Assembly: GCA_963804385.1 (NCBI GenBank)
Contig: CAWDQD010000009.1
Coordinates: 80,831-144,830 of the forward strand
Length of the DNA stretch: 64,000 bases
Direction: 5' to 3'
DNA from: an uncultured Candidatus Micrarchaeota archaeon
Lineage (GTDB): Archaea > Micrarchaeota > Micrarchaeia > Anstonellales > Bilamarchaeaceae
A program made the translations under genes and the position numbers. Below are positions 41,566-47,320 of the stretch, in pieces (the first letter of the stretch is position 1; each line of letters opens with the position of its first letter). The notes under the pieces are model-generated. The model saw only the letters and a program-made list of their open reading frames with translations, did no database searches and was not told the DNA's origin.

Positions 41566-42558
41566 CTATGGCATGAAGTTTCTCAAGTCATCCAGTTTGC
41601 CCATCGCAGCCCCGGAATCGATGGATCCGCATGCGCAATCGATCCCATCCGCGATGCTGTCGACGATGCCTGCAACATAGATAGCGGCCGCTGCGTTGAG
41701 CAGGGATATGTCGCGGGCAGGCCCTGGCTTCTTGCTGAGCACATCCAAGGTTATCTCTGCGCTCTCTTCCTTCGAGTTCACTTTCGGAGCGTCATTCCTG
41801 TCGAAGCCCAACTCCGCTGCATCCATGAACCTGGTCTCCACTTTCCCGTCCCGGACTTCGCTGATCTTCGTGTTTCCAAGCCCGATCTCATCCATGCCCT
41901 CGGAATGCACGACCATCGCCCTTTTCGTGCCGAGGACCAGGAGCACCTCGGCCATGGTCTCTGTCAAGCCCGGGCGGAAAACGCCGATTACCTGCGCGCT
42001 CGCTCCGGCCGGATTGGTGAGCGGTCCCAGGATGTTGAATACCGTACGGAAGCCAAGTTCCTCCCGCACCCCCTTCGCATTCCTCATGGCCGGATGGAAG
42101 TAAGGCGCGAACATGAATCCTATGCCTATCTCGTCGATGCATCTTTGGACCTCTTCCGGCTGGAGCAGCGGGACATCGAGCTTCTCAAGCACGTCGGCTG
42201 AGCCGCATCTGCTCGATACCGAGCGGTTGCCATGCTTTGCGATTATCACGCCAGCCCCTGCGGCTATGAGCGCCGCGGTGGTGGAGATGTTGAACGTGCC
42301 GCGCGAATCGCCGCCGGTCCCGCATGTGTCCACGAGCGGTTCCTTTGAAGGGCGAATCGCTTTGGCATGGCTTCTCATCTCCTGGGCCAATGCCGCGATC
42401 TCCCCTATAGTCTCGCCCTTCATCCTCAACGCAGTAAGGAACGCACTTGTCTGCGCCGGGGTGGATTCGCCGCTCATGATCTGCTTCATGGCCGCCCTAG
42501 CCTCATCATGCGTGAGGTCCTTCCTATCTGCAAGCTTGCCGAGCATCTGCCGCATCAT
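41566..42558 (-). CDS. trpD: Anthranilate phosphoribosyltransferase
   Basis: DTCGTGGD, FNIST, KHGNRSVSS.CGSAD, RTVFNILGPLTNP. Confidence 0.95.
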   Translation of the reverse strand: MMRQMLGKLADRKDLTHDEARAAMKQIMSGESTPAQTSAFLTALRMKGETIGEIAALAQEMRSHAKAIRPSKEPLVDTCGTGGDSRGTFNISTTAALIAAGAGVIIAKHGNRSVSSRCGSADVLEKLDVPLLQPEEVQRCIDEIGIGFMFAPYFHPAMRNAKGVREELGFRTVFNILGPLTNPAGASAQVIGVFRPGLTETMAEVLLVLGTKRAMVVHSEGMDEIGLGNTKISEVRDGKVETRFMDAAELGFDRNDAPKVNSKEESAEITLDVLSKKPGPARDISLLNAAAAIYVAGIVDSIADGIDCACGSIDSGAAMGKLDDLRNFMP

Positions 42559-42608
42559 CAGTCCCACCAAGCGGCATCTATGAACCGAATATGTTAAAAA
42601 ATGAAAAA

Positions 42609-43184
42609 TTATCTCTTGAGCCTCGCTTCCGCTTCCTTCCAGTCTATGTTCTTGAAGAACGCGGCGATGTAGTCTGCTTTCTTGAGCTGGTAATCCGTCA
42701 TGTACGCATGCTCGAAGACGTCCATCACCAGTATCGGCACGCAGCCCGAGAGATGGCCGACATCATGCTCGTTCACCCAGCAGTTGAAGAGCCTTTTTCC
42801 GACCGCATCATAGTAGAGGACGACCCAGCCGATGCCGCGCATGGCGCCGGATGATCGGAAATCCTTCTCCCAGTTCTCGTAGGAACCGAAATCCTCAGCG
42901 AGCTTCTTCACGATCATATCGCTCTTCGCGCCGCCTTTTTTCATGTTGCCGAAATACAGCTCGTGCAGCCTCATGCCGTTGAACTCCCAGCCGAACCTCC
43001 GCTTCAGTTCGGCGTATTCCGGAGTCCCGATCCTCGCATCCTTGGCCATCGCCGATAGCGCGTCCGCGGACTTGTTCGTGTTCGTGACATACCCCTGATA
43101 TAGAGTGAAATGGTTCTTCAGCAGCGTGTCGCTGAACCCATCCATCCCCAAAAGCCCCTCGAAATTCTTCGCTTCATATGCCAT
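42609..43184 (-). CDS. sod: Fe/Mn superoxide dismutase family protein
   Basis: H..LY.GYV, LHELYF, GIGW and MDVFEHAY metal-ligand motifs. Confidence 0.9.
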   Translation of the reverse strand: MAYEAKNFEGLLGMDGFSDTLLKNHFTLYQGYVTNTNKSADALSAMAKDARIGTPEYAELKRRFGWEFNGMRLHELYFGNMKKGGAKSDMIVKKLAEDFGSYENWEKDFRSSGAMRGIGWVVLYYDAVGKRLFNCWVNEHDVGHLSGCVPILVMDVFEHAYMTDYQLKKADYIAAFFKNIDWKEAEARLKR

Positions 43185-43193
43185 ACTATCGCC

Positions 43194-43739
43194 TCATTTC
43201 CCTACTTTTATCGCCTGCGCACCTGGCTTCCAGCCTGCGGGGCAAACCTGCCCTTTGTTCTCTCTAACGAAACTCACCGCATGCAACTTTCTTAATATTT
43301 CCGCAGCGCTCCGGCCGATGCTGTTGTCATGCATCTCCATGGATTTCACGGTGCCGTCCGGATCGATGATGAACGTCGCCCGTGTCGAGAGCCCCTCATC
43401 CTCGATATATGTCCCGAACGCTTTGGACAGCTTCCCGCCCGGGTCCGCAGCCATCGCGAACCTGACCTCCTTGACCATCGGATTGCTTCCATGCCATGCC
43501 TTGTGAACGTAAGCCGTGTCCGTGCTAACGCTGATGATATCAGCATCGGCACTCTTGAACTCCTTATGCATCTTCGCCGCCTCGTTCAGCTCGGTCGGGC
43601 AGACGAACGTGAAATCCGCCGGATAGAACATCAGCACGAGCCATTTTCCCTTGTAATCCGAGAACCTTCCCTTCCTGATTTCCCCATCCTGGAAATAATC
43701 GAATTCCATGTCAGGGATCTTCTGGTTGACACTCAACAT
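43194..43739 (-). CDS. ahpC: Typical 2-Cys peroxiredoxin
   Basis: FYPADFTFVCPTE and VCPAGW motifs. Confidence 0.95.
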   Translation of the reverse strand: MLSVNQKIPDMEFDYFQDGEIRKGRFSDYKGKWLVLMFYPADFTFVCPTELNEAAKMHKEFKSADADIISVSTDTAYVHKAWHGSNPMVKEVRFAMAADPGGKLSKAFGTYIEDEGLSTRATFIIDPDGTVKSMEMHDNSIGRSAAEILRKLHAVSFVRENKGQVCPAGWKPGAQAIKVGK

Positions 43740-44231: not shown

Positions 44232-46004
44232 TCATGCAGGGTGAGCGACCCGCAGTTCCTCCAGCGCATGGATCGCGTTAAACCCCTTTATGAACGCCTG
44301 GATAGCCGCCTTGGTCGTGTCGGTGTGGACAAAGGAAGATTCGACCTCAAGCTCTCCTTTCCTGAGCGTCATGGTGATCCTTGCCGGAGCATCGCTTCCA
44401 TCTCCCATCCCGTGGCTTTCAAAGGACGACATTTCCACTCCTGCACCATTACCGATGGCAGCACGAATCGCATTCACCCCGACGTCTACAGGGCCGTTTC
44501 CGGTGCTGTCCTCTCCTATGGCTTCCCTGCCGTTGATCTTGACTCTCACGCGGGCCGTCGACCCTGCATCATTGGTGGAGATATCATCGATTCGGACGTC
44601 ATCGACCATGCAGCATGGTTTGCCCATCACGGCATGATAAGCCATGAGCAGGAAGTCCGCATCGCTCACCCCCCTGGTCGCAGCCATCCCTTTCACCGCT
44701 TCGAGGACGACCCCTACCTTGGCTTCGGGGATGCTGACCCCGAATTCGCCCAGCCTGTGGATGATGTTCTTGTTCCCCGAGAGTATGCCAATCCCGACCT
44801 CCTCTTTTCTCCCTATGATCTCGGGACCGTACGGTATGTACACGCTTCCGTTGTCTCTCCTGTCGGTCCCGACGTTCCGGGTGCTGCAGCCGCTGTCTTC
44901 GCTCTTGAGGACCCCGTCTCCGTGGACGCCAGCGGTATGCTTCAAAGCCTTTTCCCCCACATAGGAGGCGTTCTCTGCCGGTCCGACGCCGAAGCGTTCG
45001 GTCACGAATGCGGATACCTCTTTCAGCCGGCTCATGTCGGCGTACTCGATGCCATAGTTGAGCAGCATATGCATAGCCACCTGCTCCATCGCCGCATTTC
45101 CGGTCCTCTCGCCCACACCATGCATAGTGACCTGCGCTACGGAGACTCCCGCGAGCATGGCCGCTATCGTGTTCTGGAACGCCATGTTCATGTCGTTATG
45201 GCAATGCACCTGGAGCGGCAGCTGGGGCACCTTCGAGCGGATATATGATATGAGGCCGTACATGTATGCCGGATCGCACACGCCGATAGTGTCCGGGATG
45301 TTGTATTGGATGCCGTGGCCTCCGGCGGCTTCGTAGACCATCTCCCCGACCCTCACCAGATGGTCCGGATCCGCCCTCGCTGCATCCTCGAGCGATACTA
45401 TGATCTTTTCGAAGCCCTTGCTTCTCGCGTATATCACGCATTCCCTGATATGGTCCATGAGCTGCTCCGGCATCTTGTCGAATTTCACCCATGCATGCGG
45501 GATGGAGCCAGAGGAATATATGTGCATGGTCTCCGCTTCCGCCTCGGCTGCGGCGTCGATGTCCCTGTGCACCATGCGGCCTAGGCTGACTATCTCGGTG
45601 TCCAGGCCGCGTTCCCTCACCATTCTCCTCACCGTCTTTATGGCTTCAATCTCGCCGGGATTGCTCACCGCGTTGCCGACCTCTATGATCGGTATCCCCC
45701 AATTGGCCAGCCGCATGCAGATGGCGACCTTGTTCTCGATGACCGACTTCCCGCTGTGCTCGGTGACGAATGCCGCGGTCTCCGGCGTCTGCATGCCGTC
45801 CCTGGCCGTGGTGTCGAATATCTTGATAGCGCCGAGCATCGCTACTGTCCCCTCATCCCTCGCGATCATGGCGCGGCCATATCCTTCTGCATAGGGCCCT
45901 ATCATCTCGAGATACTTGTTCTTCCTCTCGCCCCACCATCTGAATTCCCTTACCGCATCGGGCATCGTTCTTGCTGCCGAGCGTATCATCTCTTTGGTTA
46001 CCAT
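44232..46004 (-). CDS. leuA: 2-isopropylmalate synthase (LeuA/CimA family) with C-terminal regulatory domain
   Basis: DTTARDGMQ, PDTIG, HCHND, GVGERTGNA, H.AGVH.DG, GNGPVD allosteric domain; strong SD AAGGAGGTG. LeuA versus CimA/homocitrate synthase cannot be fully resolved by eye. Confidence 0.8.
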   Translation of the reverse strand: MVTKEMIRSAARTMPDAVREFRWWGERKNKYLEMIGPYAEGYGRAMIARDEGTVAMLGAIKIFDTTARDGMQTPETAAFVTEHSGKSVIENKVAICMRLANWGIPIIEVGNAVSNPGEIEAIKTVRRMVRERGLDTEIVSLGRMVHRDIDAAAEAEAETMHIYSSGSIPHAWVKFDKMPEQLMDHIRECVIYARSKGFEKIIVSLEDAARADPDHLVRVGEMVYEAAGGHGIQYNIPDTIGVCDPAYMYGLISYIRSKVPQLPLQVHCHNDMNMAFQNTIAAMLAGVSVAQVTMHGVGERTGNAAMEQVAMHMLLNYGIEYADMSRLKEVSAFVTERFGVGPAENASYVGEKALKHTAGVHGDGVLKSEDSGCSTRNVGTDRRDNGSVYIPYGPEIIGRKEEVGIGILSGNKNIIHRLGEFGVSIPEAKVGVVLEAVKGMAATRGVSDADFLLMAYHAVMGKPCCMVDDVRIDDISTNDAGSTARVRVKINGREAIGEDSTGNGPVDVGVNAIRAAIGNGAGVEMSSFESHGMGDGSDAPARITMTLRKGELEVESSFVHTDTTKAAIQAFIKGFNAIHALEELRVAHPA

Positions 46005-46093
46005 GCATCACACCTCCTTGTTTTTTGACGAGAGAAAAAGTAAGACTGAGGATAATTTTTACAAGTCCAAAATTCTATTGTAGGTGTGGCCGG

Positions 46094-46156
46094 CTAGGCC
46101 AGGAGGAGCAAGCTGAGCACTATGGAATTAGACTGGATTTCGCTCCTTGCTTGCAT
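46094..46156 (-). CDS. Putative leu leader peptide MQARSEIQSNSIVLSLLLLA (or MDT-extended from 46165)
   Basis: Hand translation of the minus strand: ATG at 46156, TTG CTC CTC CTG at 46111-46100, TAG at 46096-46094; TATA-like TTTAAAAA at 46188-46181. Confidence 0.65.
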   Translation of the reverse strand: MQARSEIQSNSIVLSLLLLA

Positions 46157-46237
46157 AGTGTCCATTTGTGTAAGCAAGAATTTTTAAATTCTGGTAACAG
46201 AACTCGCCGGGCATCCAAGAACGCCAATCCAGAAAAC

Positions 46238-47320
46238 CTATCCTTGCCTCTTTATCACTTGCACGACGTCCCCGTCGGCCAGCATATGATATAGCCCGAC
46301 GCGCTGCGGCTGGTGCTTCACGCTTTTTCCCCACACGAGCGCATACCTGAATTCTTTCCGTAGATCGCGGTGCAGCCGCTCGCACATCTCCCCCACTGTG
46401 ATGCCGCTGCGAACAACCATGGGGTCGTTCATGTCCGCGACCTCTCCCTTGCGCTTGGTGAAGATGTGGATCAGATCGAGCTTGTCGTATATCTGTTTTT
46501 TCAGCTCCTCTATGCCGCCGCCCCGCTCCGCCGCGATGGCAACATACTCGAACGGAAGCTTGGGCGGCGTCTTCACGAGGTCCGATTTGCTCAGCACGTA
46601 GACTGCGGGTATGTAAGCACGGTTTCCTTCAATGGCATCGATGAATTCGTCAACGGTTATGTCCTGATGCAGTATGATGTCGGCATTGAACATGCTGTAT
46701 GCGTTGAGCGTCGCCTGGATGCTCCGCTCGCTTATCTTGGTGATGGGGACCGTATGGTTGATCGTTATCCCGCCTTTCATTGCCTTCCCTATGGATACGT
46801 GCGGTGGCGAGGCATTGACCCTGATGCCGAATCCGTATAGCTCGGTCTCGATTATGCGGCGCTGGTCCGGGTGGTTGGCCTCTATCATGATGAGTATGAG
46901 GTCCGCGTTCCTCGCGACCGCTATGACTTCCCGCCCCCGTCCTTTCCCGTCTTTCGCACCTTCGATGATTCCTGGCAAATCGAGGATTTGTATCTTCGTG
47001 TTCTTGTAATTCATCGTGCCTGGAATGCATTTCAGCGTCGTGAATGCGTATGCCGCTGTTTTGGATTCGGCGTTCGTGAGTTTATTTAGTAATGTGGACT
47101 TTCCGACGCTGGGAAGCCCTATCAGCGCGACGGTCGCGTCGCCGCTTTTCTTGACATCGAATCCTCCCCCGCTCGCCCCGTGTTTCCTCGGCGCGAGCAG
47201 CTCGCGGCGTATCTGCGCGATCTTGGACTTGATGATTCCGATATGGTACTCCGTGGCCTTGTTCTTCTGGGTACGAGCCATCTCGTCCTCTAGTTCCTTG
47301 AGTTTTTCCTGGAGTCCCAT
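46238..47320 (-). CDS. DRG/Rbg1-family GTPase with TGS domain
   Basis: TQKNKATEYH, GLPSVGKS, FTTL, DLPGII, YALVWGKS.KH.PQRVGL. Confidence 0.95.
   Translation of the reverse strand: MGLQEKLKELEDEMARTQKNKATEYHIGIIKSKIAQIRRELLAPRKHGASGGGFDVKKSGDATVALIGLPSVGKSTLLNKLTNAESKTAAYAFTTLKCIPGTMNYKNTKIQILDLPGIIEGAKDGKGRGREVIAVARNADLILIMIEANHPDQRRIIETELYGFGIRVNASPPHVSIGKAMKGGITINHTVPITKISERSIQATLNAYSMFNADIILHQDITVDEFIDAIEGNRAYIPAVYVLSKSDLVKTPPKLPFEYVAIAAERGGGIEELKKQIYDKLDLIHIFTKRKGEVADMNDPMVVRSGITVGEMCERLHRDLRKEFRYALVWGKSVKHQPQRVGLYHMLADGDVVQVIKRQG

Follow-up and report, generated by a model that had tools for sequence, protein, structure and literature searches.

A tiny leucine-rich reading frame, with a small hairpin around its stop codon, is conserved in front of an isopropylmalate-synthase-like gene in 11 Micrarchaeota genomes, making it a credible candidate for amino-acid sensing by a translating ribosome in an archaeon. 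We identified it on the minus strand of a 64,000-nt stretch of DNA (hereafter, the window) from an uncultured Candidatus Micrarchaeota archaeon (GenBank assembly GCA_963804385.1, contig CAWDQD010000009.1). A first-pass annotation of this sequence had proposed a ribosome-mediated leucine attenuator upstream of an archaeal leuA, consisting of a TATA-like box, a 20-codon upstream ORF (uORF) ending in Leu codons about 90 nt before the gene, two upstream complements of the Shine-Dalgarno (SD) sequence, and a U-rich tract. Upon re-examination, every one of these features was present at the position given, and the observation is confirmed. The interpretation built on it is only partly supported, as described below. 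The parts of the locus are as follows.

46181-46188, minus strand: TATA box TTTAAAAA of the leader promoter.
46146-46178, no strand assigned: inverted repeat CTTGCTT...AAGCAAG (half-sites 46178-46172 and 46152-46146) between the TATA box and the first uORF codons, a possible DNA operator.
46094-46156, minus strand: leader uORF of 20 codons plus TAG, MQARSEIQSNSIVLSLLLLA (ATG 46156-46154, TAG 46096-46094).
46100-46117, minus strand: Leu-rich stretch CTC AGC TTG CTC CTC CTG (L S L L L L), including CCTCCT at 46106-46101.
46087-46101, minus strand: 5-bp hairpin UGGCC/GGCCA with the stop codon in its loop, U46101-C46097 pairing with G46091-A46087.
46082-46088, minus strand: CACACCU, complementary to the SD region.
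46030-46054, minus strand: conserved pyrimidine block TATCCTCAGTCTTAC followed by T5 (46039-46035), with CTTACTTTTTCTCTC at 46044-46030; a candidate archaeal oligo-T termination signal.
46021-46026, minus strand: A6 run just upstream of the SD.
46009-46019, minus strand: SD region AAGGAGGTGTG of the main gene.
44232-46004, minus strand: 590-aa gene of the IPMS/homocitrate/citramalate-synthase family, long-form clade, with its ATG at 46004, 89 nt from the uORF stop.

Four observations were absent from the first-pass annotation: the hairpin around the stop codon, the A6 run, the inverted repeat, and an in-frame ATG at 46165 that is not conserved in relatives. The sequence TTTAAAAA occurs 3 times in the window against 0.59 expected, and the other two copies also sit upstream of ORF starts.

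To determine whether the uORF is a chance ORF, we compared the leaders of related genes, an examination that the first-pass annotation had itself named as a possible refutation. All 11 Micrarchaeota leaders found, from 11 genomes, carry an in-frame ORF of 20-29 codons ending in a Leu-rich stretch plus Ala/Gly and a stop, with 5-6 Leu in the last 8 sense codons in 10 of 11 and 3 in the genome designated G091, indicating that the uORF is not a chance ORF; the downstream proteins are only 37-91% identical. The N-terminal parts diverge in sequence and length but stay in frame, and in the eight closest leaders Leu codons vary at 5 of 6 positions and only synonymously (CTG/TTG, CTC/CTT), one whole codon is gained or lost, and the stop switches between TAG and TGA at a fixed place. 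These 11 leaders are kin from one family and so are not independent. About 14 further clade members seen only as proteins (P0002, P0003, P0005-P0016, P0018-P0020) are not included in the leader counts, and a metagenome scan added none, as the 80 loci kept are all 33% identical or less and none belongs to the long-form clade.

We also compared the elements flanking the uORF, using hand counts of spacings and T-run lengths from the printed sequences. A TATA box lies 23-24 nt before the AUG in 11 of 11 leaders, with a pyrimidine before the A, which fits archaeal leaderless transcripts and implies a leaderless uORF, although the transcription start is inferred from this spacing alone. Repeats related to the inverted repeat are seen in three other leaders (L034, L027, and L002), and the palindrome is seen only in the four to five closest leaders. 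A T-run follows the pyrimidine block, with at least 5 T in 8 of 11 leaders and a stop-to-T-run distance of 54-56 nt in the seven closest; of the remainder, genome G017 has T4, G319 has an interrupted run (TTCTTT), and G422 has no T-run of 4 or more. A-rich runs lie just upstream of the SD in most of the other leaders, and GGTG within the SD region is invariant in 11 of 11.

We next examined RNA structure across the leaders. The only consensus helix found by RNAalifold is the 5-bp hairpin enclosing the stop codon, which pairs in 55 of 55 cells, with one compensatory change (a GC-for-CG swap) and three U-A to U-G changes; the hairpin thus rests on a single compensatory event, and 32 of 500 shuffles reach its score. 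By contrast, the SD pairings put forward in the first-pass annotation are not supported comparatively. CACACCU:AGGUGUG is perfect only in this window, with 62% of cells pairing across 11 leaders, no change on both sides, and 500 of 500 shuffles doing as well, and only the 4-bp core CACC:GGUG is mostly kept. CCUCCU:AGGAGG pairs in 83.6% of cells but does not beat shuffles (314 of 500); Leu codons and an SD are each constrained on their own. A third candidate, GGAGCG:UUGCUCC inside the uORF, pairs in 75% of cells, matched by 184 of 500 shuffles, and pairing of the mRNA 5' end (AUGCAAG) with the pyrimidine block was dropped after inspection by eye because there are no matching changes. The window leader folds no better than shuffles (z 0.04), the part after the uORF folds worse than shuffles in 8 of 10 leaders, a terminator scan found none on the minus strand, and Rfam returned no match at gathering score in the window and only two noise matches at E up to 10.

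To assess how widely the leader occurs, we built a covariance model (R1) from nine of these leaders. R1 recovers the window leader at E 5e-15 and once only in the 1.45-Mb genome (G000), finds one strong copy per genome, and hits 11 of 99 family genomes. The six places scoring over 700 bits with the clade profile in 401 phylum genomes all lie in genomes with an R1 hit, whereas the ~500-aa paralogues lack the leader. There is no indication of a Leu regulon, as R1 finds no second strong copy in six genomes (one weak hit, in G091, scored E 0.06), and the paralogue elsewhere in G000 has no Leu uORF. Upstream neighbors differ among the leaders (a GTPase, a small Cys-rich ORF, tRNA-Phe, or a paralogue), and the neighboring tRNA is tRNA-Phe, not tRNA-Leu. 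In G017 the same leader and SD precede a different gene, and in G422 an extra ORF is inserted, both of which fit a portable cassette; these two ORFs have no Pfam family, no usable Atlas hit, and no similarity to each other. Read-through of the uORF stop into the synthase start was rejected because the frame, although open in the window, is closed in genome G006.

The name leuA, used in the first-pass annotation, is too strong for the downstream gene. The protein carries HMGL-like, HCS_D2, and LeuA_dimer domains (PF00682 at 1e-57, PF22617 at 2.5e-7, PF08502 at 4.1e-17), the HMGL-like catalytic domain plus C-terminal LeuA_dimer regulatory domain of a 2-isopropylmalate synthase, but it belongs to a divergent IPMS/homocitrate/citramalate-synthase clade. 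It scores below the cut-offs of all 25 listed NCBIfam families, the best being NF002085 at 318.8 bits against a cut-off of 517, and its best solved relative is a homocitrate synthase (6ktq). No Iso_dh (PF00180; LeuB), aconitase-family (PF00330; LeuC), or IlvD family gene was found in G000, which is 90% complete, and PF00180 and PF00330 were likewise not found in G006 and G049. In G317, the hits score as NADP-isocitrate dehydrogenase (624 bits, above the cut-off of 567) and, as partial pieces, best as aconitate hydratase, rather than LeuB/LeuCD; like-sized hits in G091 and G319 were left out of this NCBIfam scoring. The genome seems unable to make leucine, which obscures the logic of Leu control.

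We consider it somewhat more likely than not that the intergenic region is a cis-acting regulatory leader whose core is a translated, probably leaderless, 20-codon leader peptide. In this view, transcription would start about 23 nt after the TATA box, at or next to the uORF AUG, and a ribosome would translate the uORF, its progress through the five Leu codons just before the stop depending on charged tRNA-Leu. A ribosome held on those codons would open or mask the conserved GGCC hairpin together with the adjacent CACC, a ribosome that finishes would let the hairpin re-form, and this difference would set, in one direction or the other, how much expression reaches the SD-led synthase gene. The analysis itself establishes the conservation, the coding signature, the hairpin, the spacing, and the exclusive linkage to this gene clade; the transcription start, translation, Leu sensing, and the output step are inferred from sequence alone, and a search for sequencing data listed no RNA run. 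For the output step, the likeliest possibility, though a tentative one, is read-through versus termination at the pyrimidine block and oligo-U tract about 55 nt after the stop, an archaeal-type signal that needs no hairpin and might be helped by FttA/aCPSF1; archaeal RNA polymerase terminates at oligo-T without a hairpin, and FttA prefers U-rich RNA (PMC13675443, PMC13681488). However, the stop lies too far before the T-run for a ribosome there to touch a polymerase at the T-run, so that how ribosome position would reach the terminator is unexplained, and no alternative-structure switch is visible. In addition, the serine inside the Leu stretch and the final Ala are conserved, which pure codon sensing does not require, and an AT-rich block in the spacer could be a second promoter. 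Occlusion of the SD by the Leu-codon or CACC pyrimidine motifs is a more doubtful second candidate for the output step.

Among alternative explanations, the one that survives best, though we regard it as unlikely, is the translational switch proposed in the first-pass annotation, similar to the actinobacterial LEU element (PMC1262725), in which the Leu-codon run (CCUCCU) and/or CACACCU pair with the SD unless a ribosome stalled for lack of Leu-tRNA masks them. Both complements are perfect in the window, RNAfold pairs CACACCU with AGGUGUG there and the same region in G006 and G317, the cores CCUY:RAGG (88% of cells) and CACC:GGUG (7-10 of 11) are mostly kept, and the LEU element is described with a Leu-run:SD stem. 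Yet beyond the lack of covariation, the 7-bp pairing is lost in G006, G319, G091, G422, G049, and G367, the SD pairs elsewhere or not at all in 7 of 10 folds, and the helices are short and span a 90-190 nt loop. The geometry is also ambiguous, as opening the stop hairpin would free GGCCACACC to pair with the SD, which is the opposite response.

Less likely still, the small ORF could be a separate gene for a 20-24-residue peptide with its own promoter and oligo-T terminator, possibly acting in trans, for example on the synthase, which would then be transcribed from a second promoter in the spacer. The T-run lies where an archaeal terminator of a small gene would lie, the spacer holds an AT-rich block (GGATTTnTAnnAAAnnTATCC in five leaders) about 25-40 nt before the T-run and SD region, and the peptide end LSLLLLLA is conserved at the residue level. 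However, the AT-rich block is poorly conserved and does not match the TTTAAAAA box used upstream, conservation continues without a break from the stop through the hairpin, CACC, and the pyrimidine block to the SD, which is more than a terminator needs, eight or nine hydrophobic residues are too few for a membrane span, and the unit is always co-oriented and adjacent despite differing upstream neighbors.

It is improbable that the conserved element is instead a protein-binding site, either the palindrome bound by an Lrp-type regulator or the twice-repeated CUCAGYYUKRCU pyrimidine block bound by an RNA-binding protein, with the ORF incidental. The inverted repeat overlaps the expected transcription start and its half-sites may resemble Lrp-type sites, the pyrimidine block before the T-run resembles the Leu-codon block, and the authors of the LEU element study also ended up favoring a protein factor (PMC1262725), but an incidental ORF would not keep frame, start, Leu-only substitutions, and a TAG/TGA stop at one position across leaders whose first halves are unalignable. 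Least likely is nascent-peptide arrest, in which LSLLLLLA would act inside the ribosome tunnel, as TnaC does, and hold the ribosome at the stop in response to a small molecule rather than Leu-tRNA: the Ser, the final Ala/Gly, and the stop context are conserved and the RNA next to the stop is conserved, C-rich, and G-poor (by eye), but the final Ala/Gly codon and the UG of the last Leu codon are explained by the hairpin arm, and G049, G367, and G091 rearrange the residues while keeping the Leu richness.

Like the actinobacterial LEU element upstream of leuA (Seliverstov et al. 2005, PMC1262725), the leader has a short uORF with a run of Leu codons complementary to the SD of an adjacent isopropylmalate-synthase-type gene and no classical terminator hairpin, but the LEU element is defined by a conserved pseudoknot with a Leu-run:SD base stem, whereas here the only conserved helix encloses the stop codon (no candidate second helix was seen by eye, the folding methods predicting nested pairs only), the host is an archaeon, as the first-pass annotation had inferred, the uORF appears leaderless behind a TATA box, and a conserved oligo-T block follows. 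The classical enterobacterial attenuators (leu, trp, his, and phe leaders; outlined in PMC4007540) likewise have a short ORF rich in codons for one amino acid before an enzyme gene of the matching family and a U-tract before the structural gene; here, no mutually exclusive terminator and antiterminator hairpins are seen, the Leu codons sit at the very end of the peptide, the stop lies inside a hairpin loop, and the U-tract has no adjacent stem. Leaderless leader peptides predicted in Deinococcus deserti (PMC4007540) also start at the 5' end of the transcript and need no SD, but are bacterial and predicted to act through bacterial attenuators, whereas here the leaderless start is inferred only from the TATA-AUG spacing. 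In factor-dependent attenuation governed by a leader ORF, as in the E. coli tna operon with Rho and in uORF-linked Rho termination reported in M. tuberculosis, the RNA after the uORF stop is also unstructured and G-poor with a termination site some tens of nucleotides downstream, which here is a candidate site only; the archaeal counterpart would be FttA/aCPSF1 with Spt5 (PMC13681488), for which we found no case of steering by a leader peptide.

Leader-peptide attenuation is a textbook bacterial mechanism, and our full-text literature searches turned up no archaeal case; a recent cross-domain review of termination has no occurrence of "attenuat" or "leader peptide" (PMC13675443). A more far-reaching possibility, which we hold only tentatively, is that this is the first ribosome-mediated amino-acid attenuator in Archaea, built without the bacterial terminator/antiterminator hairpins, in which a leaderless Leu-codon leader peptide, a stop codon caged in a small hairpin, and an oligo-U/FttA-type termination signal couple tRNA-Leu charging to expression of an orphan IPMS-like enzyme. 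Leu-tRNA would then serve as a read-out of what the host supplies to a DPANN archaeon that apparently cannot make leucine, and the response might even be reversed (on when Leu is plentiful). The target enzyme, an IPMS-family protein with a regulatory domain in genomes where no LeuB/LeuCD was found, raises a metabolic question about its role in a host-dependent DPANN cell. If the mechanism is real, the locus would offer a defined natural setting for transcription-translation coupling and FttA/Spt5 action, described as largely untested in archaea (PMC13681488), and archaea would also use the translating ribosome as an amino-acid sensor, but with archaeal parts: a TATA-driven leaderless uORF and a hairpin-independent oligo-U signal.

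On the minus strand, the 233-nt gap between a GTPase gene (46238..47320) and a gene encoding a 590-aa protein (44232..46004) holds every feature listed in the first-pass annotation, at the positions it gave, so that its observation is confirmed. To these we add a hairpin around the uORF stop codon, an A6 run, an inverted repeat, and an upstream in-frame ATG. The features are as follows:

46188-46181, minus strand, TATA-like box TTTAAAAA
46165, minus strand, upstream in-frame ATG that relatives lack
46146-46178, inverted repeat (CTTGCTT...AAGCAAG) between the TATA box and the first uORF codons
46156 (ATG) to 46096-46094 (TAG), minus strand, 20-codon uORF translated as MQARSEIQSNSIVLSLLLLA
46106-46101, minus strand, CCTCCT
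U46101-C46097 with G46091-A46087, minus strand, 5-bp hairpin whose loop contains the stop codon
46088-46082, minus strand, CACACCT
46039-46035, minus strand, T5 within a pyrimidine stretch
46026-46021, minus strand, A6 run
46019-46009, minus strand, AAGGAGGTGTG, the SD region

To determine which genomes carry this leader, we first examined the downstream protein. The window lies in a 1.45-Mb, 90%-complete genome (G000), whose relatives are recorded as Candidatus Micrarchaeota. The 590-aa protein heads a distinct clade of 23 proteins, 558–609 aa long and 37–100% identical, after which scores drop from 354 to 231 bits. With a profile of this clade, 27 of 401 genomes of the phylum match at E 1e-100 or better, but only six places score above 700 bits (the next scores 408), and all six are in one family. 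We read the DNA upstream of the members in eight related genomes (G006, G317, G416, G413, G319, G091, G049, and G367) and built a covariance model, R1, from nine leaders. R1 finds exactly one strong copy in the window's genome (E 5e-15) and in each of five relatives, and it hits 11 of 99 genomes of the family, adding the leaders of G017 and G422 as well as a complete copy for G367.

The uORF is under selection as a reading frame. All 11 leaders have an ATG-started ORF of 20–29 codons, of which eight end in L-S-L-L-L-L-(L)-A, whereas G049 ends in LLLSLLLA, G367 in LLLLLLG, and G091 in LLQLA. The first halves are barely alignable and differ in length, yet the frame holds. In the eight closest leaders, the Leu codons vary at five of six positions (CTG/TTG, CTC/CTT, TTG/CTG/CTC/CTT), always synonymously, and the window and G006 lack exactly one Leu codon. 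The 11 genomes are kin, and these counts do not correct for phylogeny. The stop is TAG in seven leaders and TGA in four, at the same place. This is the pattern expected of a translated Leu-codon sensor and not of an incidental ORF.

Counting by hand, we found that a TATA box (TTTAAAAA, TTTATAAA, or TTTTTAAA) ends 23–24 nt before the uORF ATG in 11 of 11 leaders, with a pyrimidine preceding the A. In archaeal promoters, this spacing puts the transcription start at or next to the AUG, suggesting a leaderless uORF. TTTAAAAA is rare in the window, with 3 copies against 0.59 expected; one of the other two copies lies 21 nt before an ORF start and the other lies 60 nt before an SD-led ORF, so both architectures exist in this genome. 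The inverted repeat spans the TATA-to-AUG interval and the first uORF codons, and related repeats are seen in the leader loci L034 (2771-2801, CTTGCAT-N17-ATGCAAG), L027, and L002. This may explain the conserved Met-Gln-Ala start, and the repeat could be an operator for a transcription factor; its half-sites resemble Lrp-type sites.

To look for conserved RNA structure, we ran RNAalifold on nine leaders, which returned only the hairpin around the stop codon. On 11 leaders, 55 of 55 cells pair in this hairpin, with one CG-to-GC swap (G367) and three U-A to U-G changes; slid controls pair in 4%–57% of cells, and 32 of 500 shuffles reach the score. Nothing else holds up. The window leader folds at -33.7 kcal/mol against -33.8 for shuffles, and the segment from the 3' arm of the hairpin to the start codon folds worse than shuffles in 8 of 10 leaders (z +0.26 to +1.85), with the other two at -0.71 and -0.53. 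The CACACCU:AGGUGUG helix proposed in the first-pass annotation is perfect only in the window; overall, 62% of cells pair, there is no double change, and 500 of 500 shuffles do as well, although the core CACC:GGUG survives in 7–10 of 11 leaders. Its second pairing, CCUCCU:AGGAGG, is formed in 83.6% of cells but equals its shuffles (314 of 500), and a helix inside the uORF is also unsupported.

Further conserved parts lie downstream of the hairpin. After a variable AT-rich spacer comes TATCCTCAGyCTTrC followed by a T-run, which has at least 5 T in 8 of 11 leaders (G017 has T4, G319 has TTCTTT, and G422 has none), and then an A-rich run, an SD with invariant GGTG, and the start codon. By hand count, the distance from stop to T-run is 54–56 nt in the seven closest leaders, although the spacer sequence differs, and 36–67 nt in the four distant ones. 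The pyrimidine block before the T-run (46030-46054, CUCAGUCUUACUUUUU) looks like a degenerate copy of the Leu-codon block (46100-46117, CUCAGCUUGCUCCUCC), a likeness that is stronger in G317 and G416 and could reflect a duplication or two sites for one factor.

In G017 (contig C5; L169 93-836, minus strand), the same leader, up to and including the SD, precedes a 247-aa ORF with no Pfam family, which belongs to a weakly conserved multi-copy family in these genomes; the contig ends 92 nt after that ORF, and no long-form synthase was found in that assembly. In G422 (contig C21; L171 991-1458, minus strand), a 155-aa ORF of no known family, with a Gly/Ala-rich N-terminal part, sits between the leader and the synthase, and a second IPMS-family paralogue lies directly upstream of the leader, as also appears to be the case in G049 (L033). 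The upstream neighbors differ among genomes. A tRNA-Phe gene lies directly upstream of the leader in four of them (L029 615-686; L030 about 2525-2730; L031 about 2580-2740; L169 about 1080-1100); in L030 and L031, the tRNA-like halves are separated by long inserts and are not called by ARAGORN, and these may be unusually long or multiple introns. The leader therefore behaves as a cassette tied to whatever follows it.

We consider it more likely than not, though with only moderate confidence, that this region is a cis-acting Leu-sensing leader peptide. In this view, ribosome progress over the terminal Leu codons would depend on charged tRNA-Leu; a ribosome held there would open or cover the stop-codon hairpin and the adjoining CACC, whereas a ribosome that terminates would let the hairpin form. 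The conservation of the frame, the hairpin, and the spacing comes directly from the sequence comparison, whereas the transcription start, translation, sensing of Leu, and the output step are inferred from sequence alone, without RNA data. For the output step we favor termination versus read-through at the conserved pyrimidine/oligo-U block; archaeal polymerase stops at oligo-T without a hairpin and FttA with Spt5 prefers U-rich, uncoupled RNA (PMC13675443, PMC13681488), and the leader is conspicuously unstructured and G-poor. The 55-nt gap between stop and T-run, however, leaves the link between ribosome and polymerase unexplained. Occlusion of the SD comes second, and the response could run in either direction; freeing GGCCACACC could close the SD during starvation.

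The closest described system is the actinobacterial LEU element, in which a uORF with a Leu run lies upstream of leuA and a stem forms between the Leu run and the SD (PMC1262725). The element described here shares this layout, but no candidate second helix for the defining pseudoknot was seen by eye, and the stem has no support beyond chance. It also fails the structural criteria of classical attenuators and matches no Rfam family. Leaderless leader peptides have been predicted in Deinococcus (PMC4007540). Literature searches, which did not extend to supplementary files or to every paper, found no archaeal leader-peptide attenuator and no paper joining Micrarchaeota with isopropylmalate synthase. 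The interpretation in the first-pass annotation, a leucine attenuator with anti-SD elements upstream of an archaeal leuA, is supported in part: the leader peptide and T-tract hold up, the anti-SD pairing is not shown, and the name leuA is uncertain.

To characterize the downstream gene, we compared its product with domain, protein family, and structure databases. Pfam gives HMGL-like, HCS_D2, and LeuA_dimer domains. The best NCBIfam hit is a 2-isopropylmalate synthase subfamily at 319 bits against a cut-off of 517, followed by homocitrate and citramalate synthase models, all below their cut-offs, and the nearest solved structure by sequence is a homocitrate synthase (6ktq, 1.2e-47), followed by IPMS entries. 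The long-form clade has an invariant Met (M71) in the R-D-G-x-Q active-site motif, where relatives have Glu or Asn, plus a 57-residue N-terminal extension with a conserved F-R-W-W motif. Downstream of the synthase gene (41566-42570, 42609-43184, and 43194-43739, minus strand) lie a 124-aa ORF of no family, an AhpC-type peroxiredoxin (below cut-off), a superoxide dismutase (below cut-off), and trpD (above cut-off), and the genome therefore keeps at least part of tryptophan synthesis.

We next asked whether the rest of the leucine branch is present. The window's genome has a second, 504-aa paralogue of the synthase without the leader, two class-IV aminotransferase genes, and a partial citrate-synthase-like match, but we found no Iso_dh, aconitase-family, or IlvD gene in it, although all 14 control genomes gave a match for each family; neither synthase paralogue has the usual downstream enzymes. 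Absence in 86%–95%-complete assemblies is not proof. G006 and G049 also lack the first two families, whereas G317 (a single-contig genome), G091, and G319 have them. In G317, the Iso_dh hit scores as NADP-isocitrate dehydrogenase, above its cut-off, and the two aconitase-family pieces match aconitate hydratase best. The enzyme behind this leader is thus an IPMS-family protein of unknown substrate, in cells that apparently lack the rest of the leucine branch.
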